DNA from: a virus
Lineage: Duplodnaviria; Caudoviricetes
DNA length: 64,000 bases
Virus record (IMG/VR): IMGVR_UViG_3300028048_000075
Location: 65,606 to 129,605 of that record
Direction: 5' to 3' (one strand)
Every line of letters begins with the position of its first letter. The first letter of the stretch is position 1. The notes beneath the pieces were generated by a model. It was not told where the DNA came from. It saw nothing but the letters and a program-made list of their open reading frames with translations, and did no database searches. The position numbers and the translations under genes were made by a program. Below, piece by piece: positions 13,118 through 63,905 of the stretch.

Positions 13118-13156
13118 CTGTTAAGACCCCCCCCCACACTTATATATTATAATAAT
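13118..13156 (+). promoter_or_regulatory. early-type promoter with poly-C (C9) spacer
   Basis: CTGTT-aaga-C9-acac-TTATATATTATAATA. Confidence 0.7.
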
Positions 13157-13177
13157 GAAGGGTATAGGAGGAGTATT

Positions 13178-13825
13178 ATGCCTGAGAAAGAACTTAAAAT
13201 GATCGTTAGTAAGACGATCAATAGCAATCGTTTCATCGCATCGATTGCATACGGTCTCACTATGGGATTGTGGGGCCGTTATTATGCGGAGAATCTGAGT
13301 TTCGTGTGGACCCAGACTCAGATTCTTGTTATGTTTGTTGCTGGCTATATAGTTAACGATTTGGCTAGCAAGAAAATGACGTTCCGTAAGTCCATATTTT
13401 ACATGCGGAATGTTCTGGGCTTCATGGTCAGATTCATTGACCTGGTTACGGTTATATGGTTTACTGTAACTCATAGCCCAGCAGTACTTTTTATAGGAGA
13501 CATTGTCTCCTGTATATTCAGTGAAGTGGAGGCCATAGCCTGGACTGAAATGCACTCAGCCACTTTCACTGGCAATTTTAGGGCAGAGCACTCGGCCCGG
13601 AATCAAAAGGCCGGCAACCTCGGAAGCATAATAGCTTACGTAGCTGCTACATTGATTGCGTTTTTCATCGTTGGTGAAAAACCGATTAGTGAGGAAATAT
13701 TATTAGTGACACAATACATCATGGTCGTGGTGTGCTATGTCATTTATTTCCGCGGTCTTAAAATCTTCAAGCTCACAAGGCCTCTTGTTGAGGCCATGTG
13801 GGCTGAGAAGGAAAAAGAAGTGTAA
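13178..13825 (+). CDS. polytopic membrane protein, 215 aa (half-MFS-like topology)
   Basis: About 5-6 hydrophobic segments; AGGAGG RBS; higher GC than neighbours. Confidence 0.7.
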   Translation: MPEKELKMIVSKTINSNRFIASIAYGLTMGLWGRYYAENLSFVWTQTQILVMFVAGYIVNDLASKKMTFRKSIFYMRNVLGFMVRFIDLVTVIWFTVTHSPAVLFIGDIVSCIFSEVEAIAWTEMHSATFTGNFRAEHSARNQKAGNLGSIIAYVAATLIAFFIVGEKPISEEILLVTQYIMVVVCYVIYFRGLKIFKLTRPLVEAMWAEKEKEV

Positions 13826-13826
13826 G

Positions 13827-13857
13827 AAAGAAAGGGGCTTCGGCCCCTTCTTTTTTT
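13827..13857 (+). terminator. rho-independent terminator (UUCG loop)
   Basis: AAGGGGC-TTCG-GCCCCTT plus T-run. Confidence 0.85.
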
Positions 13858-13899
13858 ATTCTCTTTTGTACATACCCATATACATTTTTGAGGTGTTTT

Positions 13900-14193
13900 A
13901 TGAACGGATTTGTATCTATTTTACTTAAAATACTTGGTGTTATAATTGATGTACTTGGTGTATTTACTCTTGCTCTTATAATACTCGTAATACTTTATAA
14001 GATTTTTGAAAAAGGTATTATGAAAATGCGTGTTAAGAAGTATGCTAAAAAATTGACAGAAACAAACTTTATGCAAGATTTAATGGCTAAAATGACTGAT
14101 GAAGAACTTGAAAAGATCAAGAAAAACAATCATGCTGAGACAACCATAACATTGGATTTGACAAATATGGAAAAGAAATCCGAGACCAAATGA
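13900..14193 (+). CDS. small membrane protein
   Basis: GAGG RBS; long N-terminal hydrophobic stretch; TACA-N6-TATA at 13869. Confidence 0.7.
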   Translation: MNGFVSILLKILGVIIDVLGVFTLALIILVILYKIFEKGIMKMRVKKYAKKLTETNFMQDLMAKMTDEELEKIKKNNHAETTITLDLTNMEKKSETK

Positions 14194-14227
14194 CTTATAT
14201 ATTCTAATATTAATAAGGAGTAATATT

Positions 14228-16642
14228 ATGGCTAAACAAGAAAAGCAAAAATCTGAGTTTGCATTTAATATTCCTGATGACTTTGTAGAAAATTTTGATA
14301 ATTCAGAAATACATAGAACCATTAGGGATAACAAGAAGATTTATGCATTAACGACATTTGGTCGTGCTATACCATATTATAAAGATGGCCTGATTGAAGC
14401 TTACAGACGTGCTTTGTATGATATGATTGATAAGAATATTCGATTTAAGAATAAGACTGTAAAGTCTGCTCTTATTGTAGGTGATATTATTGGTCGTTTT
14501 CATCCTCATGGTGACGCTGCAGCATATCAGTCTATTGTAACATTGACACAACCTTGGACAAACAATTACCCGCTTATTTATGGTGGGGATAGTAACTTCG
14601 GTAATGTTTTGGGAAACCCAGCTGCTGCATACCGATATACAGAATGTAAAACTTCAGAATTCTTCGATGACGTTTGTGAAGAAATCAAAGAAGAATATGT
14701 GGACTTTATGCCTAACTTTGATGATAGTGCTAAAGAAATTTGTTACATTCCGTTTAAAGTCCCCGTATTATTGGTCAATGGTTCTTATGGTATTGCTGAC
14801 TCATATATGACATCAATCTTACCACATAATCTTAACGATGTTATCGATATCTGTGAAAAGTACATAGCTAATAAACAGATTAGAAACGAGATTCTTGTGG
14901 ATGGTTTCTATCCTGATTGTCCAAACTATGGAATAATCACCAATAGAAACGAGATTGAAAGATGCTATAAGCTTGGAACACCAGCAAATGTCAAAATGAA
15001 AGCAACTATGGAAGTCAATCGTGAGGAAAATAAGATTATTATCAAAGATCTTCCTTATGGTATGACTGAAGCGGATGTTATAACCACACTCAAAGGTTAT
15101 TATGAAAAGAATCATGCAGTTCTTAGCAAAGTTTTAAATATTATAGACATGAAAACTACCAGAAATGGTGAAATGTTTATTGAATTTGAAGTCTTGTTTG
15201 ATAAGAATGCGAACATCCTTGAAGTTGCTAAAGATCTTGAACGTTTCTGTTTGTCTAAAACTGTTCCTATCAGTATGATTAATTTTGATGGAAAATTCGT
15301 TAAACGAGTTTCTATTAAAGATTTGATTGCTAACTGGTATGATACATTATACACGACAAAACACAGAAAACTCGGATATCAAACATCGTTACTTGTTAAT
15401 GAAATCCATATTCTCGAAGGTAAGTTGAAGATCTACGATCATATCGATGAAATCATTGAGTATGCTAAGAAATCAAAGTCTGACAAAGAATTCATGGAAT
15501 ATCTTTCTAAGAAATACGGTCTGACATTGATACAATCTAAAGCAATCATCAATATGCGTATTCAGCAATTGAATGCAACATCTAAGGATGAAATTATTGC
15601 ACAAATTGCTGAGAACAGACGTAAGATCGATGAACTTGATGAAAGAGTTATGCATATCGATGATGAAATCGTTGCGGATCTCGAAAAGCTAAGAAAGAAG
15701 TATGGAAGACCAAGAAGAACAGTAGTACTTGAGGATTCAGAATCAAGTTCTAAGAATATAACTTCTATTCCTATGAGTAATGGAATGATTCTTTGGACGA
15801 ATAATCAATACGCTGTGTTCGATTTAAATGCTGTACTAAATGGTAAAAGTTTGATAAATGGTGTTAAGACTTGTAAAGTAAATGGTCGCAATGTAAAAGA
15901 AATTATTGGTGGTCACAATGTTTATAAGGATCTTATAGCCATTCTGATATTCAATAGAGATGGTACTGCTAAGAGAGTTAATGTCTCAGATTTGGTTGGT
16001 ATCAACAATTGGATTTCGGTATCAGACGAACCGATGATTGTGGGTGTAATTCCTATTTATTCTGAAGATGACAAGTTCATTTGTATATCTGATCAGAATA
16101 AAATAAAGATCTCATCTGTAGCAGATTTCAATAGTAAACAGTCAATAAAAGCTGGTGTTATGAAATGTGTACAGAGAGTAGATTCAACAAAGGATTCGTG
16201 TTTCATACTCTGTGAATCAGGAAGATATCATTATATTCATATAGCTGATATTCCTGAGTTAGGAAGAACAGCTTCAGGAGTTATTCTAAATATTCCTGAT
16301 AATGAAAATGTCTCGATGATACAGATGGAACAATTCACAGATGATATTGGTATAGCGTCTATCACAGATGCAGAAGGATACACATATATCATCAAAATCG
16401 AACAGGAATTACTCGAAGAAACCAATAGAGCGAACAAAGCTAAGAAATTGATGGATTTGAGTGATTATACGTTTACTAATATTTGTGAAGTGAATATTAA
16501 AGATAAAGATGCTAAATGCATTTTAATCGGAAAGAATTCTACATCACAAGTCAACATGAGTAACATTAGATCTGGAGATCTTGCAAGGATACCGAAGAAA
16601 GTTCCGATATCTATTGTTGGATTGGTCACTTACAAAATTTAA
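14228..16642 (+). CDS. gyrA: DNA gyrase / topoisomerase IV subunit A
   Basis: DGL...RR, KSALIVGDIIGRFHPHGD, AAAYRYTE catalytic Tyr, LLVNGSYGIA, PHNL, C-terminal pinwheel-like repeats (GRTASGV). Confidence 0.92.
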   Translation: MAKQEKQKSEFAFNIPDDFVENFDNSEIHRTIRDNKKIYALTTFGRAIPYYKDGLIEAYRRALYDMIDKNIRFKNKTVKSALIVGDIIGRFHPHGDAAAYQSIVTLTQPWTNNYPLIYGGDSNFGNVLGNPAAAYRYTECKTSEFFDDVCEEIKEEYVDFMPNFDDSAKEICYIPFKVPVLLVNGSYGIADSYMTSILPHNLNDVIDICEKYIANKQIRNEILVDGFYPDCPNYGIITNRNEIERCYKLGTPANVKMKATMEVNREENKIIIKDLPYGMTEADVITTLKGYYEKNHAVLSKVLNIIDMKTTRNGEMFIEFEVLFDKNANILEVAKDLERFCLSKTVPISMINFDGKFVKRVSIKDLIANWYDTLYTTKHRKLGYQTSLLVNEIHILEGKLKIYDHIDEIIEYAKKSKSDKEFMEYLSKKYGLTLIQSKAIINMRIQQLNATSKDEIIAQIAENRRKIDELDERVMHIDDEIVADLEKLRKKYGRPRRTVVLEDSESSSKNITSIPMSNGMILWTNNQYAVFDLNAVLNGKSLINGVKTCKVNGRNVKEIIGGHNVYKDLIAILIFNRDGTAKRVNVSDLVGINNWISVSDEPMIVGVIPIYSEDDKFICISDQNKIKISSVADFNSKQSIKAGVMKCVQRVDSTKDSCFILCESGRYHYIHIADIPELGRTASGVILNIPDNENVSMIQMEQFTDDIGIASITDAEGYTYIIKIEQELLEETNRANKAKKLMDLSDYTFTNICEVNIKDKDAKCILIGKNSTSQVNMSNIRSGDLARIPKKVPISIVGLVTYKI

Positions 16643-16701
16643 AATTATAAGGGTAGTCGATGACTACCCTTATTTCTATTCTACAGGAGGAAAAAGGAAT
16701 T

Positions 16702-17253
16702 ATGGATGTGAAACGCTTGATAATCGATCTTAACAACATGTTTTTGCGTATAAACTTTTGGGATGATGGAAACGTTATAGCTTTTAGCTTTAAATGCGAT
16801 TTCTTTGATAAAGCTTATATAGACAAAAATAACCGTATAAGGTTCAATATCAAAGAATGTAATAGTGGTGAGTTAATGTTGAACCTCTCCACAAGAAACG
16901 CAGAAAACGACAACAGCGAGTTCTTTGAGATTTCAAGAAAATACTTCAATGATAATCTTGCAAATCTCGTAAAAGATTCTCTTAGGCATATGCTCAATGG
17001 GGAACAGCTTATACCTAATCCGTCTGTTGAAGCTGCTTACAAGCTAAAGTCAAGACCTAAGAATAACAATCATACTCAGAGAGTTCGCAATCTCAATGTT
17101 GGTATTTATGGTCTAGATCCTGATGGATACAATATCTGGTGTCCTACTGGTGAAAACCTATTTGAAGAATTGGAAGATTTTATGGAAATCCCTAGTGGTG
17201 ATTTCATGGATCTTCCACAGAATGCTGTACAACTTGAGTTAGATCTCTTCTAA
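16702..17253 (+). CDS. hypothetical protein
   Basis: AGGAGG/AAGGA upstream of ATG 16702. Confidence 0.7.
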   Translation: MDVKRLIIDLNNMFLRINFWDDGNVIAFSFKCDFFDKAYIDKNNRIRFNIKECNSGELMLNLSTRNAENDNSEFFEISRKYFNDNLANLVKDSLRHMLNGEQLIPNPSVEAAYKLKSRPKNNNHTQRVRNLNVGIYGLDPDGYNIWCPTGENLFEELEDFMEIPSGDFMDLPQNAVQLELDLF

Positions 17254-17354
17254 AATTAAAAAATAAACGCTCGATTTGATATTGGGCGTTTATTTTTTGT
17301 TTATATATTTTACTAATAGCATCGAGACTAAGTATTATATAATAGGAGAATAAT

Positions 17355-18482
17355 ATGAGACTTAATTTTGGAACAGGAAGAAGTACGTTCGGCATGACTA
17401 CTAAAGATGTGCCAGGAATGTATAAATTACACAGATTTATAGTTCTTTCAGAGATTTCTTCAAACAGTGTACCGAATATCTTGGATATATTCTTCGGATT
17501 ATTTCCTGGAGGTATAGATTGCGTTGATGAATCTTCTAAGAAAACAAGAGTTATGGTAATTAATAACTCTGAAGTACATGGAACTTATTATGGATTGCGG
17601 GATTCTAGAACTAGAAACGTATTTATCCATCATGGAATGGCTGATTGTTCAGCAAATGAAATTCAAGGTGATACACCAATATTCTTCAAAGACGTTGACT
17701 GGAACGTTATTGTTGATAAACCAGATGAAATGGAAATGGCCGTTTCACAAAATAAATGCTTGTCAGCAATGGGTGAAGTAAATCTTTCTTATGATTCGGA
17801 AGTATCTGGAGATAATATCTTTAGACCAAACAGTGGTAGTAAGAAGATATTGATTCCTACACCGGAATTCTATGACGAAAAAGATATGGTTCTTGTAGGT
17901 AATCGTGAAGAAAACTACATGGATATGATATATGACGCAAAAGAGAAAATCTGGGAAACTCCGGATGATTCTAATATACTCAGCAATATGTATACTCTTA
18001 CATTGAATGATCTTATTGATGAAAATACTAAGATTTTCAGATTAAACATTAAGATCGAAAATTTATCGTCATTTAAAGAATTTGATGAAACTTCAGAAAC
18101 ATTCAATAGTTTTGTTGAAGAACTTTGTGCTAACACTAAATTCGCTCTTGAAAAATCAGGTTTCTCGTCAGCAGAGATTATTTATGACGGAAAGAATGGT
18201 TATAATGTAACTAATCTTAAAACGTATATGAATCTTACTGATATTGAGAAAAGAATCAATTACATGGGTTTGTGTTATGAACTCGATTCATTGAATGAAG
18301 CTGGTTTGTATGGTAGTAGAAATGATATTAGCATTATTATGACACTCAACTATAGTAATATTCACGTTAAAATAATCGATAAGATTATTGACAGAAGAAA
18401 TTCTGAAAATACTACAGATTCTGACGTATTAGGATTGTCTCAGATGTTAAGAGAAAGTACAGCGAATATGTACATGTCATAA
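17355..18482 (+). CDS. hypothetical protein, 375 aa
   Basis: AGGAG RBS; early-type motif near 17302. Confidence 0.8.
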   Translation: MRLNFGTGRSTFGMTTKDVPGMYKLHRFIVLSEISSNSVPNILDIFFGLFPGGIDCVDESSKKTRVMVINNSEVHGTYYGLRDSRTRNVFIHHGMADCSANEIQGDTPIFFKDVDWNVIVDKPDEMEMAVSQNKCLSAMGEVNLSYDSEVSGDNIFRPNSGSKKILIPTPEFYDEKDMVLVGNREENYMDMIYDAKEKIWETPDDSNILSNMYTLTLNDLIDENTKIFRLNIKIENLSSFKEFDETSETFNSFVEELCANTKFALEKSGFSSAEIIYDGKNGYNVTNLKTYMNLTDIEKRINYMGLCYELDSLNEAGLYGSRNDISIIMTLNYSNIHVKIIDKIIDRRNSENTTDSDVLGLSQMLRESTANMYMS

Positions 18483-18524
18483 ACGTTTCGCTTATATATT
18501 CTCTATATAATAAGGAGTGTTAGT

Positions 18525-19697
18525 ATGAATATAACTGCGAGAACTTGGCAAAAACCGAAAGAGTATGTAGAAGCTGGTAAAGGTTTTGCCGAAGCTGGCA
18601 TTTTAGATGCACACAGATTTTTCTATATATTCTTTTCGTATAATGACATCGATGACTTTAAAAATAACCGATTGGATCCAAAAGCAATATACTATGGAAA
18701 AGCAATTCAAATAAATCTTTCTATCTCTAGAGGTGGTAAAGATAATGTTGATGTAGCTCCATGGTTTAGAGGTTCAGATAATTCGACGTTCATGAGTATA
18801 GGAATGTACATTTATGACGTTATTTCTGAAGGTAGTATTACAGATCTTTCTGGAGCACAGTTCATTCTTAAAGAATCATTGGTGTCTTCAACAACAAATG
18901 ATTATGATTTGAAGAAATCTATGTTACTCGGAGCATCAATGTATTCTAAAGATCTTAGGGATAAACCTGAGAAATCGATATATTTGGCAAATAACATAAT
19001 GGAAGATCATCCACCAATTCCAGAACCAGAGTATTACACTATAAGACAACAAGAAGTTGAAAATGGTGATATATTCACAATATTGGATCTCGGAACTGTT
19101 ATAACTCGTTTAGGTCATGAAATATTTGATGAAAATACTACATTTTCGATAATGGATATGACCGAAATGAATGCTATGGAACCAATTCTCAAGAATAAAA
19201 TATATGAAGCGAGAAATACCAAACGAATGAGTGACTACAAAGCTTCTATATACGATTCTACAGAATTATCAGAATATACATTGTATGAAGATTTTGCAAG
19301 TATGCAACATGGTTATACTTACATTTATGATACAAATCTTGGTGTAAATATAATCAAAAACAACAAATCGTTTATGCCGTTTGTAAATCATCAATTCAAA
19401 GATAAACTTCAGGAAGATCTTGAAGGAACTTTGAGAAAAATTAAGATGTATGCTTCTGAAGTAGAAAAAGAACTTGGTCCTATGAGATTGATGTTTACTC
19501 CATTATATTATGGAGATAAAAGTAACGTCTATTTCAAAGATTGGAAAGCTGACAATCAACCGGTTGTTAAGGATTCTATTGGTCTTGATAGTGGTACTAA
19601 GTTGGAAAATGAAGTAGTTAATTGTTGCTCAGAAGAATATGACGGATGGGGAGCAAGAGATAAAATGGTTCCACCTGATGGTGGATTGTATGATTAA
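18525..19697 (+). CDS. hypothetical protein, 390 aa
   Basis: AAGGAG RBS; early-type motif near 18492. Confidence 0.8.
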   Translation: MNITARTWQKPKEYVEAGKGFAEAGILDAHRFFYIFFSYNDIDDFKNNRLDPKAIYYGKAIQINLSISRGGKDNVDVAPWFRGSDNSTFMSIGMYIYDVISEGSITDLSGAQFILKESLVSSTTNDYDLKKSMLLGASMYSKDLRDKPEKSIYLANNIMEDHPPIPEPEYYTIRQQEVENGDIFTILDLGTVITRLGHEIFDENTTFSIMDMTEMNAMEPILKNKIYEARNTKRMSDYKASIYDSTELSEYTLYEDFASMQHGYTYIYDTNLGVNIIKNNKSFMPFVNHQFKDKLQEDLEGTLRKIKMYASEVEKELGPMRLMFTPLYYGDKSNVYFKDWKADNQPVVKDSIGLDSGTKLENEVVNCCSEEYDGWGARDKMVPPDGGLYD

Positions 19698-19706
19698 GGA
19701 GGATTT

Positions 19707-20675
19707 ATGGCATACAGAACCAAACAATTTAACATCCTGTATAAGGAGTACTTGAAACCAGTTATGGATTTCGTGGGAATCACAACCTCTAATGACCCAG
19801 GTTGTGGTCTCATGAAATATATCGGTTGTGACAAAAAGAATCCAGAAGGAAAAGCTGTACCGACATATTTTGTCAATCAGTTTAATAACAACAAGATCTA
19901 TACGTTAGTCAGATCTCAAGACGAGTTCATTAACTATAGATCTCGTAAAGATGATTTGGAATACTTTAATCCATTTGTGAAGTACAAGAATGCATTATTG
20001 CTTTTGCTTATGACAACTCCTGTTATATACGAAAAGGTCGTAGACAGGAGTTTTTGCCAAAATGATGATGGTGTAGATCTCGATATCGTAAACGTAATTG
20101 TAGACGATGAACTTGCTATCACTCAGGAAGAAATTCTTAATCACGTTAGAATTCTTCAGTATCCGTTACGTAAAAATATGTATGACGAATCGATATATTC
20201 GTATGGTGTGGAGTTCTCTACAGATACAATGAGCTTATGCGATTCTGAGCTCATAGAAGGTATAACAAGTTCTGAAGACAGCAAAATATTGGCAGTATTC
20301 ATGTTGATCTTTAGGATTATGGCAAGATTTGAAGAGCCATTACCTATTCTTACAAAAGCTTGTGACGGTTCTTTTGAAAGACTTCGTGAGATGTTTGTTG
20401 ATACTCTTACAAAGTATGAGAAAGAACGTGAACTTAATAGAAAAGATATTAAGAAACTCAAGATCGAAACTGAAGTTGATGTATATCAGGGTGATGAACT
20501 TGAACTTCTTGATTCTAACGAATACGAATCTGTTTCAGATGCATTGGATAAATCTTCTTCTCCTGAAGATGAAGAGCTAACAAATGTTACTAATATTACA
20601 GACAAATACAAAGAAGTTATTCCTATCATCGATAAAGAAAGCGATGACGATATGCTAGAATTGGATTTCATCTAA
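19707..20675 (+). CDS. hypothetical protein with acidic C-terminus
   Basis: AAGGAGG RBS; long ORF. Confidence 0.8.
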   Translation: MAYRTKQFNILYKEYLKPVMDFVGITTSNDPGCGLMKYIGCDKKNPEGKAVPTYFVNQFNNNKIYTLVRSQDEFINYRSRKDDLEYFNPFVKYKNALLLLLMTTPVIYEKVVDRSFCQNDDGVDLDIVNVIVDDELAITQEEILNHVRILQYPLRKNMYDESIYSYGVEFSTDTMSLCDSELIEGITSSEDSKILAVFMLIFRIMARFEEPLPILTKACDGSFERLREMFVDTLTKYEKERELNRKDIKKLKIETEVDVYQGDELELLDSNEYESVSDALDKSSSPEDEELTNVTNITDKYKEVIPIIDKESDDDMLELDFI

Positions 20676-20679
20676 TACT

Positions 20680-20706
20680 AAAGAGGGCCTTGTGCCCTCT
20701 TTTTTT
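20680..20706 (+). terminator. rho-independent terminator
   Basis: AAGAGGGC/GCCCTCTT plus T-run. Confidence 0.8.
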
Positions 20707-20710
20707 GTTT

Positions 20711-20724
20711 GACAAACTAATATA
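20711..20724 (+). promoter_or_regulatory. late-type promoter GACA-N6-TATA
   Basis: GACAAACTAATATA, identical to the copy at 41916. Confidence 0.65.
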
Positions 20725-20759
20725 TCCTTATAGGATAAAAATAATAATAGGACTGTGTT

Positions 20760-21890: not shown

Positions 21891-21934
21891 TGACAAATGG
21901 GGTTTTATACCCCATTTGTATATTTTGGTCCATC

Positions 21935-21948
21935 GACAAAACTATATA
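21935..21948 (+). promoter_or_regulatory. late-type promoter GACA-N6-TATA
   Basis: GACAAAACTATATA. Confidence 0.6.
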
Positions 21949-21981
21949 CTTTTCGAAATGGTTATTACAAAGGAGTAAGTT

Positions 21982-27057: not shown

Positions 27058-27061
27058 AATA

Positions 27062-40183: not shown

Positions 40184-40203
40184 TTGTTGATTTAACCTAA
40201 TAA

Positions 40204-40232
40204 GAGAGGGTCGTCATGACCCTCTTTTTTTT
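40204..40232 (+). terminator. rho-independent terminator
   Basis: AGAGGGTC/GACCCTCT plus T-run; same stem at 63838. Confidence 0.85.
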
Positions 40233-40235: not shown

Positions 40236-40273
40236 CTGTTTAAACCCCCCCCCCACTTATATATTATAATAAT
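40236..40273 (+). promoter_or_regulatory. early-type promoter with poly-C (C10) spacer
   Basis: CTGTT-taaa-C10-ac-TTATATATTATAATA. Confidence 0.7.
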
Positions 40274-40322
40274 GAAGAAGGGAAAACAACCAAATCTAAA
40301 ACCCTCCTTCAAGAGGTATTAT

Positions 40323-40553
40323 ATGAAAAATAAAATTTACATGGCTCTTACAATTTTGACATTTGGTTGCTGGATAGGTGCCATTGTTACCACCATTTGC
40401 TGTATAGTCGATCCGACATCGTCCATTGCGGATAGTTGGTTCGGATGGGCTATCTATATGGTGGCTCAGATTGTAAGAGGAATAGTTGGAGGCGACTTCA
40501 AGGAGTACGCCTCCATAATGAAATTTCTGATCAGAAACGCAAACGCTCGCTGA
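40323..40553 (+). CDS. small two-TM membrane protein
   Basis: GAGG RBS before ATG 40323; two hydrophobic segments. Confidence 0.7.
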   Translation: MKNKIYMALTILTFGCWIGAIVTTICCIVDPTSSIADSWFGWAIYMVAQIVRGIVGGDFKEYASIMKFLIRNANAR

Positions 40554-40557: not shown

Positions 40558-40604
40558 AAGAAATCCGAAAGCACTGAAATGTGTGAGTAGGATTTCTTTT
40601 TTTT
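40558..40604 (+). ncRNA. structured 3' element copy 1 (GAAA/GAGUA internal loop plus U-tract)
   Basis: AAGAAATCC-GAAA-GCAC-tgaaat-GTGT-GAGTA-GGATTTCTT-T tract. Confidence 0.7.
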
Positions 40605-40669
40605 ATTTATATATTATATTAATGAGTGGATAAACAAAATTCAAAACCACTCATATAGGAGTATTAATT

Positions 40670-41854
40670 ATGAAAGACAAGATTGTTATCAATGAGGAAG
40701 AGTTGATGAAGTTGAATCGTCCTGTAACAAAGAATGACTTCACACCAACAAAATTGGATGTAAATATAGATTACAACTATCTTTACGATTTATTGACTTC
40801 AGATATGAACTTGATCACTCATCCTGGTCAGTTCCATGCCGATGAGGTTTTTGCTATTGCATTGATACTAATTGCACGTCAAGCAATAGTCAATGCATCT
40901 AAACCTGATCCTGCAGAAGGATTGAGACCAACTGTACCTTATATTAAGGCAGTCGTAAATCGTTTTAATATCGCAGGTCTTCGACCAGAAGAACTTCGTG
41001 ATTATTACTATTACGACTGTATTCTGGATTTGAAAAATGGTCATTTCGACCATCATCATGACAATCCAGAAGAACGTTGGTTTGCCGATGAAAAGTTTGG
41101 ATTTGAGCCATCCAAAGAACACAAAATGGATGCGATGGCAACCTTTGGATGTGTCTGGTATAAGATCGGAAAGATCTTTAACATCCAGGGCGTAGAAGGT
41201 TCCAAGAACGTCTACACGGAGCTCTACAAGAATTTTATTAGAGAAATCGATCAGATTGACAATAATGGTCCTAAGGTGGCTAAGTCACAGATCGGTAAAA
41301 TGATCTCTAATATGAATATGTGGACTCCGTATGAGTACACTAGACGTTATACTCCTAATGACTCTGATGCAGATCTTGGAACAACTCCAAACTTCATTGA
41401 GGCTGTGAGGTTAGCGATCAGCATCTTGCATGCTGAAATTGTTCAGACACAGAACATGTTTTCTGCTGTGGTGAACGTTCAGAAAAAGTGTAAGATCGAA
41501 AAGATCAATGACATCACATACGTAAAGATACCTCGTGTAGCTGATGATGAGGAAGAACCAAATGTTCCTCTTGAAGCTGCGGAGATGATCGGTGCTGATG
41601 TTCTAGTAAATTACAACCCGAGTGATCGTGACGGTTCATTCAGAATCGTCATGACAAATTCATCGAAATTGGCATTTGATCAGGAGTTGTTTAACATAAG
41701 AGAGCATATTGACGGTATGCTCTTCATGCATCCTGCTCGTTTCATAGCATCATTTGATTCTGTCGAACATTTGGACGAATTCATAAATCGTCTCAAACGC
41801 TACGATATTACAAATGGTGAAACTGGTGAGACAACAGGAACCGTCTCTTTCTAA
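40670..41854 (+). CDS. MYG1-family (UPF0160) metal-dependent nuclease
   Basis: THPGQFHADEV, GHFDHH, ATFGCVW, IDQIDN, FMHPARFIA. Confidence 0.85.
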   Translation: MKDKIVINEEELMKLNRPVTKNDFTPTKLDVNIDYNYLYDLLTSDMNLITHPGQFHADEVFAIALILIARQAIVNASKPDPAEGLRPTVPYIKAVVNRFNIAGLRPEELRDYYYYDCILDLKNGHFDHHHDNPEERWFADEKFGFEPSKEHKMDAMATFGCVWYKIGKIFNIQGVEGSKNVYTELYKNFIREIDQIDNNGPKVAKSQIGKMISNMNMWTPYEYTRRYTPNDSDADLGTTPNFIEAVRLAISILHAEIVQTQNMFSAVVNVQKKCKIEKINDITYVKIPRVADDEEEPNVPLEAAEMIGADVLVNYNPSDRDGSFRIVMTNSSKLAFDQELFNIREHIDGMLFMHPARFIASFDSVEHLDEFINRLKRYDITNGETGETTGTVSF

Positions 41855-48300: not shown

Positions 48301-48327
48301 ATATTTCTGGTGAACTTAAAGGTATAA

Positions 48328-48338
48328 TTATATATTAT
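48328..48338 (+). promoter_or_regulatory. early-type promoter
   Basis: TTATATATTAT with CTGGT 16 nt upstream. Confidence 0.7.
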
Positions 48339-48383
48339 AATATTGAGTAGGATAAAAATCCGTCCTACTTAAGGAGTATTATA

Positions 48384-49746: not shown

Positions 49747-49765
49747 TATTAATGTGATGTTCGAA

Positions 49766-51962: not shown

Positions 51963-51978
51963 GGGAGGTTAACAGAAT

Positions 51979-52938: not shown

Positions 52939-53011
52939 TGTTTGATAATACCAGGATGTGTTTTCATCCTGGTATTTTTGTTTATATATTCTCATAGTGG
53001 AGGAGAAAAGC

Positions 53012-54684: not shown

Positions 54685-54729
54685 AATAGGGCTCATAATA
54701 TTATATAGAAGATATTTGGAGGTATCTTT

Positions 54730-54921: not shown

Positions 54922-54925
54922 TTAA

Positions 54926-55504: not shown

Positions 55505-55516
55505 AGGAGCAAATAA

Positions 55517-56236: not shown

Positions 56237-56303
56237 CCAATAACTTAAACATCCCAGACCACAATTAGCAATAGTTGTGGTCTTTTTTTTTGGAGATTAA
56301 TAA

Positions 56304-58433
56304 ATGGCTGAAATTGAAAATCCTAATCAGGCATCGGATGACGATTTTTTGAGAATGATGGGTGGTTCTATAGCAAATGCTATGACCTCAGAAGAAGAAA
56401 AACGTCAAATGTTAAAAGGTCAGTTGGCTTTAAAACAAAGAGAAGAACAAGAAGCTAACGCTAAAGAAGAAAAACAAAATAACATTGAAAATAAACCTGA
56501 AGAAAAATTTGCTGATTCTATGGAATCCAATATGGCTACAGGTACAAATATATCCGAAGAAACACCAAAAGTTGAAGATAAACCTGTGAAAGAAGTTAAA
56601 ATAGAAGACATCGGCATTAGTAGCATTCAGGTTGTTGACAACTCTATTGCTACCGTTGCTGCTACAACCGCTCATAACATTCTTCCTTCACTTCATCCTG
56701 TTTTCTCATCCGACGGTAAAGAATCTCTTCCAGAAGAACCAGAACCTGGAGTTAAAGAAGAAACTGTTCCTGAACCTGAACCACAGGTAGAAGAAAAACC
56801 TAAGAAAACTTCTAATAAATCAAAGAAGAATTCATCTAAAGAAAAAACTGTTGAAATCGTTTCTCCTGAAGCTGCAGCAGAAATTAAAGCTAAGCAGTCT
56901 AAGCCTAAAACTGTAATTCCTAAGAGTGTCGACATTGTAGACGATTTTGATGCAAAAGTTCGCCAATCAAATAGGGCTTATAGTGATGAAGAACTTGTTA
57001 ATCAGGCTCAGGAAGATTCAGGTTACATTTCGGATGATGAAGTAAATAAAATTATTGATGATTCATACGACATGGATGAAACCGTCGATGTAAGTGACAT
57101 TAATGTTACTGTAGTAGACGATGTTGCTTCTGAAAAACCTGAAGAAACTAAAACTGAAACAACGGAAAAGAAAACCACTAAGAAGCCTACTAAGAAACAG
57201 GTTACTTATTATGGTGGAGATGGTAAACAGAGCGCATTCAAAGTAAGAACTGCTAAGATTTCTAATGTATTGAGAAACATCAAGATAAATAATACAGAAG
57301 AAATCAATTCTACAAGTATCGAATCAAAAAATACAAAAGATAGACAAGATATCTATCTTAAAACAGTTCTTCCAACACTACAACCATCAATTTCTGTAGT
57401 TCCTATGATTATTTCTGGTGTTGTCATTAGTATGACAGCATTTACATGGCCGGATATTCGTGAAATTATTCTTATCGAAGACAAGATCGAAGATCTTGAT
57501 CCAGATTCCAATGATTATATTTACGATAAAAACAAATACTTTATTGATAAACGTCGTAAGGAACTTGAATTGCTTTATAAGCATATCAATAGTGTATCTG
57601 GTTATGCTATTAAACCTTCTTTTGATGATCTTTTTGGTAAGATTCTTAAATTCCCTGATTTCCAGCAGCTATTCTTTGCAGCTTATTCAGCAAGCTTCTT
57701 GAAACCATATAACTTCAATATCACTTGTGGAACTTGTGGTACTGATAATGAAAAGATGGTTAATTCTAAAGATCTTTGCTTCTTGCTCAATAGCAATATC
57801 AACATTAATCAGTTGAATTATTATATTGAGAAAGGTGCTGTTATGGATAACAGTGTATCCGGAAAAGTTTATGCTGATTTCCAGAAAGAAAAACTTGTAG
57901 AAATGGCAAATTCTGTTTATAGAACTAAACAGAAACTTCCTGTTTCTTCATTTATTTTCGACCTTAAGATTCCTACTATACTTGAAGCTCTCGATACTAT
58001 GGCTGAGATTATTGAAGTATTCCGTGATAAAGATCTGTCATTTACTGATAGAAATACAGGAAACTCAGTATTTGTAGATAGTTCATTTGGTCTTACAGAA
58101 GATCTTATGAATCTCCGCAAGTATCTTTACATTCATAAGCTTATTGTTGCTCAAGTTGTTGATGAAAACAAAGAAGAAAAGACTGCTAAAGTCACATTTG
58201 TAGACTTCGAAGAAAAACAGGCAATTATCAACACGATTTATAGCTTGTCTCCAGAAGATTACGTAACTCTTATGAATGATGAAAATCTTAAGAAGCTTGT
58301 ACATGTATCAGGTATTCGTCACGCTATTAATGGCGGAAAATGTGGAGAACCTACATGTGGAGCCGAATTAGGAAATATCCCAGTAGAACCAGAGATGCTT
58401 TTTTTTACGATCGCGCGGCGAGAATACGTATAG
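56304..58433 (+). CDS. putative tail/baseplate assembly chaperone with acidic disordered N-half and Cys pairs
   Basis: GGAG RBS; CGTC and CGEPTC; ends just after a T8 slippery site (EMLFF). Confidence 0.55.
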   Translation: MAEIENPNQASDDDFLRMMGGSIANAMTSEEEKRQMLKGQLALKQREEQEANAKEEKQNNIENKPEEKFADSMESNMATGTNISEETPKVEDKPVKEVKIEDIGISSIQVVDNSIATVAATTAHNILPSLHPVFSSDGKESLPEEPEPGVKEETVPEPEPQVEEKPKKTSNKSKKNSSKEKTVEIVSPEAAAEIKAKQSKPKTVIPKSVDIVDDFDAKVRQSNRAYSDEELVNQAQEDSGYISDDEVNKIIDDSYDMDETVDVSDINVTVVDDVASEKPEETKTETTEKKTTKKPTKKQVTYYGGDGKQSAFKVRTAKISNVLRNIKINNTEEINSTSIESKNTKDRQDIYLKTVLPTLQPSISVVPMIISGVVISMTAFTWPDIREIILIEDKIEDLDPDSNDYIYDKNKYFIDKRRKELELLYKHINSVSGYAIKPSFDDLFGKILKFPDFQQLFFAAYSASFLKPYNFNITCGTCGTDNEKMVNSKDLCFLLNSNININQLNYYIEKGAVMDNSVSGKVYADFQKEKLVEMANSVYRTKQKLPVSSFIFDLKIPTILEALDTMAEIIEVFRDKDLSFTDRNTGNSVFVDSSFGLTEDLMNLRKYLYIHKLIVAQVVDENKEEKTAKVTFVDFEEKQAIINTIYSLSPEDYVTLMNDENLKKLVHVSGIRHAINGGKCGEPTCGAELGNIPVEPEMLFFTIARREYV

Positions 58434-58454
58434 CAGAACGTGAATTAGCTGCGC
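58400..58454 (+). promoter_or_regulatory. -1 programmed ribosomal frameshift signal (T TTT TTT plus downstream stem-loop)
   Basis: Heptamer in phase with the upstream ORF; 6-nt spacer; GCGCGGC/GCTGCGC stem. Confidence 0.75.
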
Positions 58455-58849
58455 AAAAACGAAAATTAACGAATAATACAGAATCGGAACCAACTAAACA
58501 GTCCGTTGAAGATGTACCGTTTAAGGAGAACGGTCTCTTCAAAAGGACTAGTAATACAAGTAGTTCTAAAACTGAAGCTGTAGAACGTACTGCTATGGAT
58601 AGACAATCCGACAAAATTATGCAAAACATTCTCAATGCTTCTAAACTACTTGAAGGACGATTTACATTTGAACAATTGATAACTCTAGATATACCTACGT
58701 TTGAAAATATAGTAAACAATGAAATGGCTAATGTTGATATATCGTATAAGAACTTTAAAGAACGTGGAACTGTAAATGCTTATACAAAGAATGAACTAGA
58801 ACATCTTGATGAAAAATTTATAAAAGATCTGAATAAAAAGATCGAGTAA
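58406..58849 (+). CDS. -1 frame extension (gpT/gpE'-like) of the 56304 gene
   Basis: Open -1 frame overlapping the upstream stop; no RBS for its own ATGs. Confidence 0.65.
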   Translation, partial: YDRAARIRIAERELAAQKRKLTNNTESEPTKQSVEDVPFKENGLFKRTSNTSSSKTEAVERTAMDRQSDKIMQNILNASKLLEGRFTFEQLITLDIPTFENIVNNEMANVDISYKNFKERGTVNAYTKNELEHLDEKFIKDLNKKIE

Positions 58850-58900
58850 TCTATTGTTTGTTACAAAATGTAAATACTATGAGTATAAATTATAAGGAAC

Positions 58901-59281
58901 TTGAAAGTTAAGATGGAAGGGCCTATTTCGCTTTTCGATTTTATTGTTAGCTTAGCGGAATCTGTATTTTCACCAAATGGAAAACAAGAATCTCCGTATG
59001 ACGTTAACTTTACAAATCACTATACAAGACTCTACGATCTAGAAGAGACTTGTAGAAATGATTTTGACCAAGAGCTTAATATAACACAGATCGAACAGGA
59101 CAAAAAGACCAAGTCCATCAACGTTCGACTTAATTCAAGTCTTAATAAAAAGACTGAAGATAAATTTAAAGAATACTGCAATACACATAATGTTGAATAC
59201 AACATTTCAAAAGGAAAACTCAAAGATATAACAATCACCAAAAATACCAAAGGTGTAATGGAGGAACGTAAATGGAAATGA
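58901..59281 (+). CDS. hypothetical protein
   Basis: AAGGA upstream of TTG start; overlaps chaperonin start. Confidence 0.65.
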   Translation: MKVKMEGPISLFDFIVSLAESVFSPNGKQESPYDVNFTNHYTRLYDLEETCRNDFDQELNITQIEQDKKTKSINVRLNSSLNKKTEDKFKEYCNTHNVEYNISKGKLKDITITKNTKGVMEERKWK

Positions 59282-61359
59282 TGGATACATCAGAATTTGA
59301 TGAATGTGTAAGTAAATCTAAGTTTATGGACGCGGATTTTACTGATATGCGTGTTTCAGAAGTAGGATATGGTAGAGACGAATACCAGACTTCAAAGCCA
59401 AACATTTTGCGTAATGATGCTATTATTGCTGAAATAATGAAAGTGTCCGCTGCTGCTGAAACTGCTATTGGCCACACTATTGGCCCTTATGCAGATGCTA
59501 CTCTTGTACAGACATTTGCTGATCGTGAAGTTCCTATTTATAACACTAGGGATGGTTTCACTATTCTTCAGAATATGAAGTATACTCAACCAATTCCTAA
59601 TGGTATTTTTAAGATGATTCGTGAAGCATCTGAATATATGCAGACTGAAGTTGGTGACTCAACTTCTTCTGGTATTCCTATTCAGAACGCATTGCTTAAA
59701 GCATATGTTGAAATCTTTAATGATCAAACTGCCGGAAAATGGAAGTATTCCCCAGTTGGTATCAAAAACATTACAGAAATCTGTGTTGAAGAGATTATTA
59801 AAGGTATCAACAATAATCCAGTTTACCATAAGGAATTCCCTAAACCAGATGAAAATGGTAAATATACAAAAGAACAGGAAGACGAAATCATTAAGTGGTT
59901 GAGCAAAGTTGCTACAATTTCTGCAAACAACGACTACAGAATTGGTGCAACTATGGCTGAACTCTATCGTGATAAACTCGATGGTAGAGGTCATGTTCTT
60001 ACAACCGTTTCTAAGACAGAAGAAGAATACTGGGAAAATACTGATGCATTCAGAGTTCCTGTAGGTCCTATTGATGAAAACCGTATGAATAATTCTTCAG
60101 ATGGATTCACATGGGAAGCAGATAATCCTGCAGTTGTAATGTTCGATGGTTCTCTTCTTGAAACAGATCTTCCTGCTCTTAAACAGATCATTGAAACAAT
60201 TTCGTTCGACGATCCTGAGAATCTTTATAGACCAATTATGCTTGTTGCAAGCAATTTCGATTGGCATATTGCTCAGTATCTTCGTGAATGTATCGATGGT
60301 ACATATTACAACGAACTTGGTCAGTGTATTAAGGATGAAGGAGCAAATCCTGCAGCAAAGACTAAAGCTCTGACTATTTGTGGTATCATTCTTAAGAATA
60401 AGGAAATTGCTGAACAGTTCAGGTTTAATGATCTTAAACTTATGACAGGTTCAAGAGCATTTAGTACAGAACTCACAAAGATGTCTGAACTATCTCCTGA
60501 AAAAGAACTCAGATTGCAGCAGGTAAACAATCTGATTGGTACTTGTAAACATATTTCTTCTGGTAGAGCAGAAACAAACTTTGTTGGCTGTGAACCAAAT
60601 AAAGAAGAATTCGATGCTCTTATTGCAGATCTTAAATCTCAGGCAGAAAAACTTAAGAGAGTTAAGTTCCATATGACAGATTATAGTGCTGATGATCTTT
60701 ATGGTCGTATCGATAATCTTCAGGCAAGAACTACTTTCTTCTACTGTGGTGGTAGATCAGCAAAGGCAAAATATTCCAGAAAACTTATTATCGAAGATGC
60801 TTCAGCTGCTGTAGAAGCTGCTATTAAGAGTGGTGGTGTTTCTATCGGTGGTAACATGGCTATTTGTCATTACATTGAGCATAATTTCGACACAATCGTA
60901 GAAAATGTGCTCAATACCATTGGCAATGTCCGCATCAACATTACAGCTGCAGAAAACTTTAACACATTGAAAGACATTATCGAGCTTATTCTCGAATCCA
61001 TTAAGTATTCATTTGGTAATGCTTACAGATATGCTCTTTACAATATGTATCGTGATCCTGAACAGTGTATGAAAACTTGGACAAGGTGTCTCAAATCCGA
61101 AGTTCCAACGATTTATAACATTATGACAAATGCTGATGAAACTTTCGATTCTACAGATTCTCAGAAGTGTACAACAATAATCGTACCTAAAAATACTGAT
61201 ATTTGTCTATTGCACATTGTAACTGAGACTGTATCTGAATTGATCAACATTGGCAACATGATTACTGTTATGTCTCCTGGAATTGACCTTGAAACGTTGC
61301 AATTGAAGCAGCTCGCTTCTGGTGCAGCATATATGGCAAGTTCAAGCATGTACAGATAA
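59272..61359 (+). CDS. groEL: GroEL-like phage chaperonin
   Basis: TIGPY, TRDGFTIL, EVGDSTSS, VATISAN, IEDASAAVEAAIKSGGVSIGG. Confidence 0.88.
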   Translation: MEMMDTSEFDECVSKSKFMDADFTDMRVSEVGYGRDEYQTSKPNILRNDAIIAEIMKVSAAAETAIGHTIGPYADATLVQTFADREVPIYNTRDGFTILQNMKYTQPIPNGIFKMIREASEYMQTEVGDSTSSGIPIQNALLKAYVEIFNDQTAGKWKYSPVGIKNITEICVEEIIKGINNNPVYHKEFPKPDENGKYTKEQEDEIIKWLSKVATISANNDYRIGATMAELYRDKLDGRGHVLTTVSKTEEEYWENTDAFRVPVGPIDENRMNNSSDGFTWEADNPAVVMFDGSLLETDLPALKQIIETISFDDPENLYRPIMLVASNFDWHIAQYLRECIDGTYYNELGQCIKDEGANPAAKTKALTICGIILKNKEIAEQFRFNDLKLMTGSRAFSTELTKMSELSPEKELRLQQVNNLIGTCKHISSGRAETNFVGCEPNKEEFDALIADLKSQAEKLKRVKFHMTDYSADDLYGRIDNLQARTTFFYCGGRSAKAKYSRKLIIEDASAAVEAAIKSGGVSIGGNMAICHYIEHNFDTIVENVLNTIGNVRINITAAENFNTLKDIIELILESIKYSFGNAYRYALYNMYRDPEQCMKTWTRCLKSEVPTIYNIMTNADETFDSTDSQKCTTIIVPKNTDICLLHIVTETVSELINIGNMITVMSPGIDLETLQLKQLASGAAYMASSSMYR

Positions 61360-61360
61360 T

Positions 61361-61392
61361 CTGTTCAACCCAAAGTTAAAATTACATATTAT
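61361..61392 (+). promoter_or_regulatory. early-type promoter CTGTT-N16-TTACATATTAT
   Basis: Same architecture as the poly-C promoters but with a mixed-sequence spacer. Confidence 0.65.
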
Positions 61393-61445
61393 AATTTTGA
61401 GAGAGCATAAATTCTATATCACGCTCTCTCAAAAGGAGTATGATA

Positions 61446-61751
61446 ATGAAAGGGAAGAACCCATTTCTCATGCAGAGAAACTGGGTAGGAGCACGACCCG
61501 CAAATGAAGGGTCTAGACCGTCACCATCTAGGTCTAGAAGGGATAGTGCTCCTGCCCCTAGAATGGAAAGAAGCAGACCTATAAGAAGATCTGTTTCTTC
61601 ATATTGTAGTTCTTCTGGTTGTGAAACGAGATCGTCAAGGCGATCTCAACCAGAGGGAAGGGACCCTAATAGTATCAAACCTGAAGAGGTTATCTGCCAT
61701 GGAATGCAGGTAACCAATGTAGATAACTACATTGCTAACCTCTTTAGATGA
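61446..61751 (+). CDS. small basic Arg/Ser-rich protein
   Basis: AAGGAG RBS; RS-rich low-complexity core. Confidence 0.7.
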   Translation: MKGKNPFLMQRNWVGARPANEGSRPSPSRSRRDSAPAPRMERSRPIRRSVSSYCSSSGCETRSSRRSQPEGRDPNSIKPEEVICHGMQVTNVDNYIANLFR

Positions 61752-61755
61752 GTTG

Positions 61756-61798
61756 GATCCAGGGGAGAGTAATCTCTCCTCTGGATGTATTTTTTTTT
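61756..61798 (+). terminator. rho-independent terminator
   Basis: ATCCAGGGGAGAG/CTCTCCTCTGGAT plus T-run. Confidence 0.8.
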
Positions 61799-61815
61799 CA
61801 GAAGGGTAATAGATT

Positions 61816-62625
61816 ATGGCAAAATCTAAGGACGTGACTGATACTAAGAATGAAACAATTCGTAAAAACGTTGCTAATAAAAAAGAAAACGAATTGAAGA
61901 TCTATAAAAATATACTTGAGAAGTCTTATACTCTTAAAAATAAATTTGAGAAATTTTACATAACAACTATCAAAAATGTCGAAATATCGGATTCAATGAC
62001 AGATTATAACGTAGTTGAAATGATAAAGAGTCTCATATTTGGTGTGGATGATACAAATGTTGCTAAGGTTGATATTGGTAAAAATAGAAATCTAATTAAA
62101 CAGATGCTATTAAATTTACCAAGTCTTTACAAAGTAGCATGTTTATATAAAGAACTTCTTATACAGTTTGAAGAATATCTGAACTACATTGATTCAGAAA
62201 TTGAATCTATACCTATTAAAGAAGTACAACTTCTTAATGAATATACATTCGAGAAGTTTAAGGATCTTGTATATTCTTTCTCTTGGGAAGCTACTTATAT
62301 GAGATCTCATGCATCGACATTTAAGACACTCATTTATAATTCCGGAAGTATTAATTTTGAAAAACCTCATAATATTAATGGACAAGATGAGGTTGTTGGA
62401 GCAAAGAAAGATACTTTAAAACGTTATTATTTTGGCGATTGCTATGATATTAAAAACGGTTTTAAGTATTTTGATAATTCCAAGATGATATTCGGTGAAA
62501 CTAATGCTATCATGAGAGTTTTTAATAGAATTTCCGATTATTTATTCAAAGATTTTATTACTGTGTATAATACAATAGTGCTTAATATTGAAGAGATTTT
62601 GAAGCATTCTGGATCTACAAAATAA
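61816..62625 (+). CDS. hypothetical protein
   Basis: 269-aa ORF. Confidence 0.75.
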   Translation: MAKSKDVTDTKNETIRKNVANKKENELKIYKNILEKSYTLKNKFEKFYITTIKNVEISDSMTDYNVVEMIKSLIFGVDDTNVAKVDIGKNRNLIKQMLLNLPSLYKVACLYKELLIQFEEYLNYIDSEIESIPIKEVQLLNEYTFEKFKDLVYSFSWEATYMRSHASTFKTLIYNSGSINFEKPHNINGQDEVVGAKKDTLKRYYFGDCYDIKNGFKYFDNSKMIFGETNAIMRVFNRISDYLFKDFITVYNTIVLNIEEILKHSGSTK

Positions 62626-62652
62626 TATAAACTCTTTTGGAGGGCATGAATA

Positions 62653-63828
62653 ATGCGTATTGTTACTAGTAGAGAAGATTATCTTGAAAAATATTTTGCT
62701 ATGCATCAGCAGCGAATTGTAAGATGCTACGAAAAAGAGTGGTCTAGATATGTTGAATTGTGTAAAAGGTTTATGCGAGAAAGCCCTATACAAAAAGTTA
62801 AATTTTTACTTTTGGACCATATAGAGTCTATACCTTCCAATCTTACAGACAAATTGACTATGGATGGTCGTATAGAATTCTCTTCTTTTTTGTTCAAATC
62901 TCTAATCATGTGTGTCATGGATACAGAAAATGCTAAACCTGGTGTAAAGATCTCACATCATTTGCCACTATCGTTTAGAATATTCTTGGATCCTAATAGG
63001 GTTAAAGAATTTAAACTCGTTGATCCTAGAGAGGCTAATGCTCAATTTAATAAAATAGTAAATATTAGTGAGAAAGCTATAAAGAATTATTTAAAACCAT
63101 TCGATTTTAGCTGTAGTGTTACTGATACTGCTATTACTTGTAGTCCTAGTGAAAGATACAGCTATTTCACTATCAATATCATTATGAATCGTTATATTAA
63201 TAAATCCGAATTACTTATAGCTGGCAGACGTAGTATAGAAACCCTTATGCTAGCATATAAACTCAATAATGTAAACGATTTCAGTCGTGAAGATGGTGAA
63301 AAAGTTCTTACACCTGGAGCATATTTTGTACAGAAGCACACAGAAACTCCTTTGTTAGAGTTTGTGAAAACTGAGCATATAGGTGTCATTGACGATTGGC
63401 TTAGAAAAGTCCGTGAAGAAGCAGATATATTTAAAGCTAAATGTGAAGAGATTCTTAGACCATATCTTACTCCTAATGATGAAGTATGTGTTGATTTAGC
63501 TTTAAATGTAAATCCTAAAGATACTTATAAGCTTTATGTCACTATTTGTACAAGAGTTCCATCAAGCGTATATACAGATAATCCTGATGAAGATGGAATA
63601 AATGTTATTCGTTTTGATAGGAAACCTGAAGAACTTCAAAAAGCTATGTACGAAATAATGAATTCGCTGCGTAATACAACATTGGAACATTCTGGAATTC
63701 AGATTATGGACCCAGATTTCCCTGAAATGAAATGCGTTACAGAAAATGATCAAACTGCGTGTACTGTATCATTCGATATTCGTTATCCAGATTATATACA
63801 AGCAGTTCTTGATGCTGATGAAGTATAA
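62653..63828 (+). CDS. hypothetical protein
   Basis: GGAGG RBS; 391-aa ORF. Confidence 0.8.
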   Translation: MRIVTSREDYLEKYFAMHQQRIVRCYEKEWSRYVELCKRFMRESPIQKVKFLLLDHIESIPSNLTDKLTMDGRIEFSSFLFKSLIMCVMDTENAKPGVKISHHLPLSFRIFLDPNRVKEFKLVDPREANAQFNKIVNISEKAIKNYLKPFDFSCSVTDTAITCSPSERYSYFTINIIMNRYINKSELLIAGRRSIETLMLAYKLNNVNDFSREDGEKVLTPGAYFVQKHTETPLLEFVKTEHIGVIDDWLRKVREEADIFKAKCEEILRPYLTPNDEVCVDLALNVNPKDTYKLYVTICTRVPSSVYTDNPDEDGINVIRFDRKPEELQKAMYEIMNSLRNTTLEHSGIQIMDPDFPEMKCVTENDQTACTVSFDIRYPDYIQAVLDADEV

Positions 63829-63834
63829 AATTAT

Positions 63835-63862
63835 AAAAGAGGGTCTATATGACCCTCTTTTT
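63835..63862 (+). terminator. rho-independent terminator
   Basis: AAGAGGGTC-tatat-GACCCTCTT plus T's. Confidence 0.85.
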
Positions 63863-63866
63863 ATTT

Positions 63867-63905
63867 CTGTTCAACCCCCCCCCCCCGATTATATATTATA
63901 ATATT
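63867..63905 (+). promoter_or_regulatory. early-type promoter with poly-C (C12) spacer
   Basis: CTGTT-caa-C12-ga-TTATATATTATAATA. Confidence 0.7.

Follow-up and report, generated by a model that had tools for sequence, protein, structure and literature searches.

The stretch of 64,000 nucleotides analysed here (the window) makes up the final 64 kb of a 129,605-bp virus contig of IMG/VR, IMGVR_UViG_3300028048_000075 (G000), rated about 46% complete, and the elements under study are three runs of cytosine that lie inside candidate early promoters. The GC content is 34% in the window and 33% in the genome, and nearly all the long open reading frames (ORFs) of the window are on the + strand. Split beta-like subunits of RNA polymerase (RNAP; PHROG 3295, PHROG 2962; Pfam RNA_pol_Rpb2_6) are encoded there, together with a divergent family-B DNA polymerase and a topoisomerase II subunit. 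The source is an uncultured jumbo phage with a full size of probably about 280 kb. The best cultured matches of the RNAP subunit gene at 11746-13077 were found, at 31% identity, in Bacillus phages AR9 and PBS1, which on sequence comparison are the nearest cultured relatives; the AR9 homologue of its product is g264, annotated as the C-terminal part of the virion RNAP (vRNAP) beta subunit. The GenBank phages showed no DNA-level match to the window, no tRNAs were found in it, and its search against Rfam gave zero matches.

Anatomy of the tract promoters

The tracts C9 (13127-13135), C10 (40245-40254) and C12 (63875-63886) are the sole runs of C or G of six or more nucleotides in the window. The rest of the contig adds one C6 and one G6 and nothing longer, and a first-order Markov model predicts about 0.004 C runs of nine or more for the contig. 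All three tracts are embedded in the same order of elements on the + strand. At site 1 the upstream promoter element CTGTT (13118-13122, approximately -39 to -35) is followed by a 17-nt spacer that contains the C9 tract (approximately -30 to -22), by the core TATATATTAT (box 13141-13150) and, after six nucleotides, by the predicted start G at 13157, core and start together covering 13141-13157. At site 2, CTGTT lies at 40236-40240, the C10 tract is inside a 16-nt spacer, and the core plus predicted start (40258-40274; box 40258-40267) ends at the G at 40274, where a leader hairpin starts. At site 3, CTGTT is located at 63867-63871, the C12 tract inside a 17-nt spacer, and the core plus predicted start at 63890-63906 (box 63890-63899; start G at 63906). 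Counted from these predicted starts, the C runs reach from about -31 to -20, right up against the conserved core. Each promoter is preceded on the + strand by a terminator-like hairpin with a T-tail (13083-13107, which ends the vRNAP beta C-terminal gene 11746-13077; 40202-40228; and 63835-63861), and at all three sites the tract is intergenic, between terminator and promoter core, and not in a coding sequence whose frame it could shift.

The same layout is also found without a run. One such member extends from 61361 to 61399 (+) and has CTGTT, a 16-nt spacer beginning with CAACCC, the box TACATATTAT and a predicted start G at 61399; its upstream flank is common to site 3. The other, at 48307-48345 (+), has CTGGT, a 16-nt spacer, a box and a predicted start G at 48345. 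In total, 14 boxes of the looser form TAYATATTAT are present in the window, and seven of them carry the full 13-mer.

With regard to the AT-rich box, the sequence TATATATTAT occupies -16 to -7 and is followed by six bases and then by G+1. In AR9, 41 mapped early starts have AAATATATATTAT-(6N)-G+1 in common (PMC5312081), and the early promoters tested in that phage are transcribed without new protein synthesis, an activity that was assigned to the injected virion RNAP (PMC5312081; review PMC7598289). We aligned 50 boxes from the G000 contig and from its relative IMGVR_UViG_3300028048_000112 (G001), and outside the search pattern the conserved positions were T-20, A-19, T-17, A-6, T-4, T-1 (45/50), G+1 (42/50) and A+2. 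The boxes have the orientation of the gene downstream, and three of five leaders form a hairpin that starts right at the predicted +1. The g264 gene of AR9 also directly precedes an annotated early promoter, that is, the same slot as site 1 (AR9 KU878088.1 220773-222044; window 11746-13160). Because of the match to the AR9 consensus, the conserved G start, the split RNAP genes and this synteny, the reading of the box as an AR9-type early promoter of the virion RNAP is well supported at the sequence level. As a separate observation on that slot, the gene that follows the vRNAP gene is, among the relatives, a different and unrelated small membrane-protein gene in each lineage.

The upstream element was examined in 57 boxes of three related contigs by counting the distance to the T that precedes the box. 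The motif CTGKY occurs at 16 nt in 11 cases and at 17 nt in three, which makes 14 of the 57 boxes against about 0.3 expected from the background frequency, and at any other distance it appears once or twice. In the more distant relatives L086 and L087, whose RNAP is 45-49% identical, YTGKT is present at 16 nt. Since CTGTT is found both with and without a terminator before it, it is part of the promoter, not of the terminator, and by its positional enrichment we regard it as a real upstream element at a constrained distance of 16-17 nt. About a quarter of the promoters form this bipartite subclass, with the element (T)TCTGTT at approximately -39 to -35; in the second class, which comprises the remaining boxes, the T-tail of the upstream terminator runs directly into the core. 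One AR9 early promoter that we inspected had no upstream element.

The length of the spacer was 16 nt in six of six sites that carry no tract, whereas among the tract sites it was 16 nt in three, 17 nt in four and at least 18 nt in one. The run-free members of the class have AT-rich spacers, which shows that a GC block is not required, and the tracts themselves are either pure runs or clear decay products of these, never mixed G/C blocks.

A preliminary description of this DNA had pointed to the C9, C10 and C12 tracts as the only long C runs, each between CTGTT and the box directly after a terminator, with spacers of 17, 16 and 17 nt, and had reported the run-free layout at 61361 and 48307. 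The run counts in the window and in the whole contig, a direct reading of the sites and the terminator-like hairpins agree with it in every one of these respects, and all of its coordinates are correct. It had also proposed that the spacer length is constrained, which the 14 of 57 boxes confirm, and that a phage-encoded RNAP reads these early promoters, a proposal with which the AR9 consensus and the AR9-like split RNAP subunits are in good accord. The anatomy of the tract promoters is real, statistically strong and recurrent in relatives.

Occurrence of the tracts in related phages

The relative G001 is an 88,955-bp contig with 22 boxes, all on one strand, and it contains exactly three long homopolymers, every one of them at the promoter-spacer position: a C10 with a 16-nt spacer, a G10 on the sense strand with a 16-nt spacer, and a C13 (L062:8940-8952; G001:C1:88940-88952) past which the contig ends after 3 nt, and whose spacer, provided that the upstream element exists, would have a length of 18 nt or more. 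A break of the assembly at this place has the look expected of a run that is heterogeneous in length within the sample. In addition, G001 has an interrupted tract, C5TC5, with a 17-nt spacer, and a degenerate C-rich spacer of 16 nt. The leader after C5TC5 matches the leader after the C12 tract of the window (85% over 41 nt), and because of this match we consider the two promoters to be orthologous; they have different tracts and an equal spacer of 17 nt.

A further contig, G007, was assembled from a different sample; over 30 kb it shares about 96% identity with G001. At the degenerate C-rich site three neighbouring bases are substituted between the two, and the spacer has 16 nt in both. As a side observation on this pair, G001 has a segment of about 110 bp (71157-71266 in its reverse-complement coordinates), with a whole CTGTT-class promoter and the beginning of a 55-codon ORF, that G007 lacks. 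Another contig, L080, with an RNAP about 50% identical, presents TTGTT, a C10 and the box TACATATTAT with a 17-nt spacer. The long runs are all in promoter spacers (three of three in G000, three of three in G001, and one of one both in G007 and in L080), and none was found elsewhere in these four sequences, which together amount to about 255 kb.

Outside this group the tracts were not observed. Runs of C8 or G8 are absent from a 276-kb, 99%-complete relative and from four further related contigs, as well as from the genomes of AR9 (251 kb), BpSp and MarsHill. Alignment searches with the RNAP subunits recovered only relatives at 30-58% identity, in which the slot orthologous to site 1 has either a box without a tract, as in L071, or a different promoter. 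IMG/VR searches with three single flanking proteins gave no orthologous promoters; pattern scans of IMG/VR (tract plus box in the C and G forms, with TAT and TAC boxes, and the shared leader described below) returned G001, G007 and chance matches only, and scans of the genome collection gave no match. Since YTGKT occurs in distant relatives while the tracts are missing from the more distant and from the cultured ones, the bipartite class is old, and the tracts were added to it recently, in a single lineage. The turnover of tracts between relatives is fast. A separate case was noted at L074:184-193, in a lineage with 54% RNAP identity, where an intergenic G10 on the gene-sense strand is followed by a hairpin and there is no canonical box.

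Genes and leaders behind the promoters

Each tract promoter with a visible downstream gene precedes one small gene, and the two complete units of the window are bracketed by terminators. Promoter 1 is followed by a single gene (13178-13825, +; GC 0.43) for a multi-pass membrane protein of 215 amino acids, closed by a terminator at 13832-13849 (+). Relatives of this protein at 58-95% identity occur in many metagenomes; the same protein is encoded on contigs of 279,053, 93,844 and 9,837 bp, and variants at 79-85% on contigs of 267,420 and 271,852 bp. By atlas structure it may resemble half of an MFS transporter (TM 0.66-0.76) and it clusters with viral proteins, which we take as a lead only. Promoter 2 also serves a single gene (40323-40553, +; GC 0.42), which encodes a small membrane protein of 76 amino acids, and a terminator hairpin at 40558-40604 (+) closes the unit. 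The T-run-class box at 40608-40617 (+) is separate from site 2 and serves a MYG1/UPF0160-like gene (40670-41854).

At site 3 a structured 5' leader of about 95 nt (63906-64000, +; minimum free energy -28 kcal/mol, z = -2.7) is cut by the end of the contig. It had no Rfam match even at E = 1, and it is conserved in G001 (approximately L060:8306-8424, - strand), where a 129-amino-acid ORF follows. Because a protein gene follows in the relative, the leader is more likely, by this comparison, a 5' untranslated region than a free RNA. Of the downstream features given in the preliminary description, two membrane proteins and a structured RNA, both proteins and the RNA structure hold, the structured RNA being more likely such an untranslated region.

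Searches in Pfam, PHROGs and PADLOC gave no match for the tract-driven genes of the window or of G001. In G000 and G001, the gene next to a CTGTT-class promoter is short, and the mean GC of these first genes is 0.427, compared with 0.355 behind other boxes (Mann-Whitney p = 7e-5); they are perhaps a distinct, possibly recently acquired, set of early genes. A 103-codon ORF (61440-61751) follows the run-free CTGTT promoter; its product would be rich in Arg, Ser and Pro, and its GC content is 45-52% in a genome of 33%. Candidate explanations are a foreign gene, an RNA or a reading in the wrong frame. Another observation concerns a leader, GARGAAGGG-A(3-5)-CAACCAAA, that directly follows the +1 in four to five promoter cassettes of three contigs (window 40274-40300; G001 L028, L016 and L138; G007 L132). 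Behind a box, this leader is found in IMG/VR in those three contigs only, which suggests a duplicated or mobile promoter-leader module.

Discussion

The explanation that we place first, and to which we give an even chance, is that slippage-prone G:C spacers tune these early promoters. What we infer are the slippage at these tracts, its effect on transcription and a benefit in the form of bet-hedging. The preliminary description had already suggested slipped-strand ON/OFF tuning of accessory early genes as a form of bet-hedging, an interpretation that the results support in part. According to this proposal, in one sub-lineage the spacers of several bipartite promoters would have been turned into a pure G:C homopolymer of 9-13 bp, usually with C on the sense strand and once with G. 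Runs of this length would slip during replication, and each burst would hold genomes with a spacer longer or shorter by one base. As the spacing is constrained, a changed spacer would raise or lower transcription of what stands behind the promoter, which would be one small gene per promoter, and the output of that gene should shift with the length of the tract. The arrangement has two traits of a switch of the porA/opc type, since a homopolymer of at least 8 bp lies between two promoter elements, the upstream one inferred from its positional enrichment, and the distance between the two is constrained. As signs of instability in length we read the scatter of the spacer, which is present only at tract sites, the orthologous pair of C12 and C5TC5, the three substituted bases in the degenerate C-rich spacer of G001 and G007, and the break of the contig at C13.

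A broader form of this proposal is that the phage lineage uses the G:C runs as heritable random dials, read by its own injected, sigma-less RNAP, and we put it forward tentatively, as a possibility that is more doubtful than probable. The virions of one burst would differ in which small early accessory genes they express, or at what dose; membrane proteins that may set off or counter host defences are one example.

Several points weigh against the tuning of promoters by slippage. In the sole pair of strains that could be compared, G001 and G007, no variation in tract length was seen at the same site, the G10 being present in both. The starts at 13157, 40274 and 63906 are predicted from sequence conservation. 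No upstream element has been described for the AR9 early promoters (PMC5312081), and any factor that reads CTGTT is hypothetical. Half of the tract sites have a spacer of 17 nt and not the canonical 16, which means either that 17 is also functional, with a weak effect of one base more or less, or that the consensus corresponds to the low state. Finally, the comparison of spacer scatter between tract and non-tract sites (Fisher p = 0.028) is indicative only, since the paralogous sites are not independent and the length of the C13 spacer depends on the end of a contig.

The first of the alternatives is that the G:C run is a fixed structural or protein-binding element, with its length held by selection, and not a switch; it could be a stiff, hard-to-melt block beside the AT-rich core, or the site of a regulator. 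We consider it rather unlikely. The equal G10 in two strains that are 96% identical would be expected of such an element, and so would a total spacer within 16-17 nt at seven of the eight tract sites; the occurrence of both C and G versions is what a property of the duplex would produce, and the majority class carries an oligo-T run at the same interval of -20 to -30. However, the promoters of the same class with ordinary AT-rich spacers do without such a block, and only pure runs and their decay products are seen, not mixed G/C blocks. In addition, orthologous sites differ from each other (C12 versus C5TC5, and a tract versus none after the vRNAP gene), and tracts are missing from about 1.26 Mb of related genomes.

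An unlikely explanation too, in our judgement, is that the tracts are a neutral by-product of a constraint on length only, in which a C-rich seed such as CAACCC was expanded by slippage and the result was tolerated and not used. Runs of 9-13 should decay fast at 33% GC, yet eight of them are found in four sequences at a single promoter position, with none elsewhere, other intergenic DNA included, and their expansion would have needed offsetting deletions to hold the spacer at 16-17 nt. These facts are set against the promoter at 61361, which has the flank of site 3 with only CCC, the existence of degenerate C-rich spacers, and the restriction of the tracts to a narrow lineage, all of which such a by-product would explain.

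That the tracts lie between the -35 and -10 of host sigma-70/sigma-A promoters, as in Neisseria porA, seems to us very improbable. A simple scan does find TTAAGA-16-TATATT at site 1 and TTTAAA-17-TATTAT at site 2, each with nine of 12 positions, but hexamer matches of the sigma-70 type 16-18 nt apart are no more frequent than in shuffled sequence (30 versus 27.7 and 33 versus 47.3). Moreover, the conserved positions (-20 to -7, -6, -4, -1 and +1) fit the virion-RNAP promoter of AR9 and not a -10/-35 pair, the conserved upstream letters are CTGTT and not TTGACA, and early transcription in AR9 proceeds without newly made proteins and has been ascribed to the injected virion RNAP (PMC5312081). 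Artefacts of sequencing or assembly, such as poly-G dark-cycle reads, can hardly be credited in spite of the C13 at a contig end, since seven of the eight tracts are internal with conserved promoter parts on either side in exact register, the same G10 is present in contigs of two samples with single-nucleotide polymorphisms around it, and tracts occur in four independent assemblies.

Other candidates were rejected. A Rho-loading site on read-through RNA does not agree with the poly-G version at the same position; because this version exists, the strand that carries the Cs is not what matters, and a strand-specific signal such as a C-rich RNA is argued against. An i-motif or a G-quadruplex was discarded because there is a single run only, an antisense late promoter of the AR9 type (AACA-N6-TW) opposite CTGTT because the required T and purine are absent at sites 1 and 2, and pairing of the tract with the terminator stem because no complementary G run is present.

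Homopolymers in promoter spacers are a classic device of bacterial phase variation, as in the poly-G of porA and the poly-C of opc of Neisseria meningitidis. The promoters studied here resemble them in having a G:C homopolymer of about 9-13 bp between two spacing-constrained promoter elements, where slippage would change the spacing. They differ in the polymerase, which would be a sigma-less phage virion RNAP, and in the elements, which are CTGTT and an AT-rich core in place of -35 and -10; furthermore, in a lytic phage each infecting genome would bring its state with it, fixed a single time. The early promoters of AR9 and of other phiKZ-related jumbo phages share with ours the core TATATATTAT, the 6 nt to a conserved G start and the location ahead of early genes, the slot behind the vRNAP beta C-terminal gene among them, and the split RNAP genes are of one kind; in AR9, in contrast, neither a CTGTT element nor homopolymer tracts have been described, and its 251 kb contain zero C8/G8 runs.

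Among phages, the promoter-early stem-loop (PeSL) cassettes of T4-like phages combine a terminator hairpin, an early promoter and a small gene, and vary between related genomes. The units described here are similarly short and variable, although PeSL cassettes have no homopolymer, and mobility of the cassettes is in our case only suggested by the shared leaders and the differing flanks. The poly-G tracts of Campylobacter phages are reportedly hypermutable repeats, in work said to be that of Sorensen and colleagues from 2021. In T-even phages, contingency loci with hypermutable repeats were described in coding regions, and promoters are never mentioned (preprint 10.1101/2025.10.21.683753). Both systems are like the present one in that they are slippage-prone homopolymers of virulent phages and a proposed source of diversity within a burst; they differ in that their repeats shift the frame of coding sequences, whereas the tracts reported here are intergenic and within the promoter. 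A full-text search of the literature found no report of homopolymers in a promoter of a jumbo-phage RNAP, which is not proof of absence.

It is still unsettled how the virion RNAPs of jumbo phages find their promoters in the absence of a sigma factor, and on this question a second element at a fixed 16 nt, together with natural variants of the spacer, offers a testable handle. Should the broader form of the proposal hold, transcriptional phase variation would have its first described case with a multisubunit RNAP encoded by a virus, and an upstream element and a spacing rule would be revealed for a still poorly understood virion RNAP. If the tracts slip and alter output, phase variation by promoter spacers would be found not only in bacterial pathogens but also in lytic phages and with an RNAP that uses no sigma factor, and the contingency loci lately described in phage coding regions would gain a transcriptional counterpart. 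The small, insulated early genes that these promoters precede are likely players in the conflict between phage and host.

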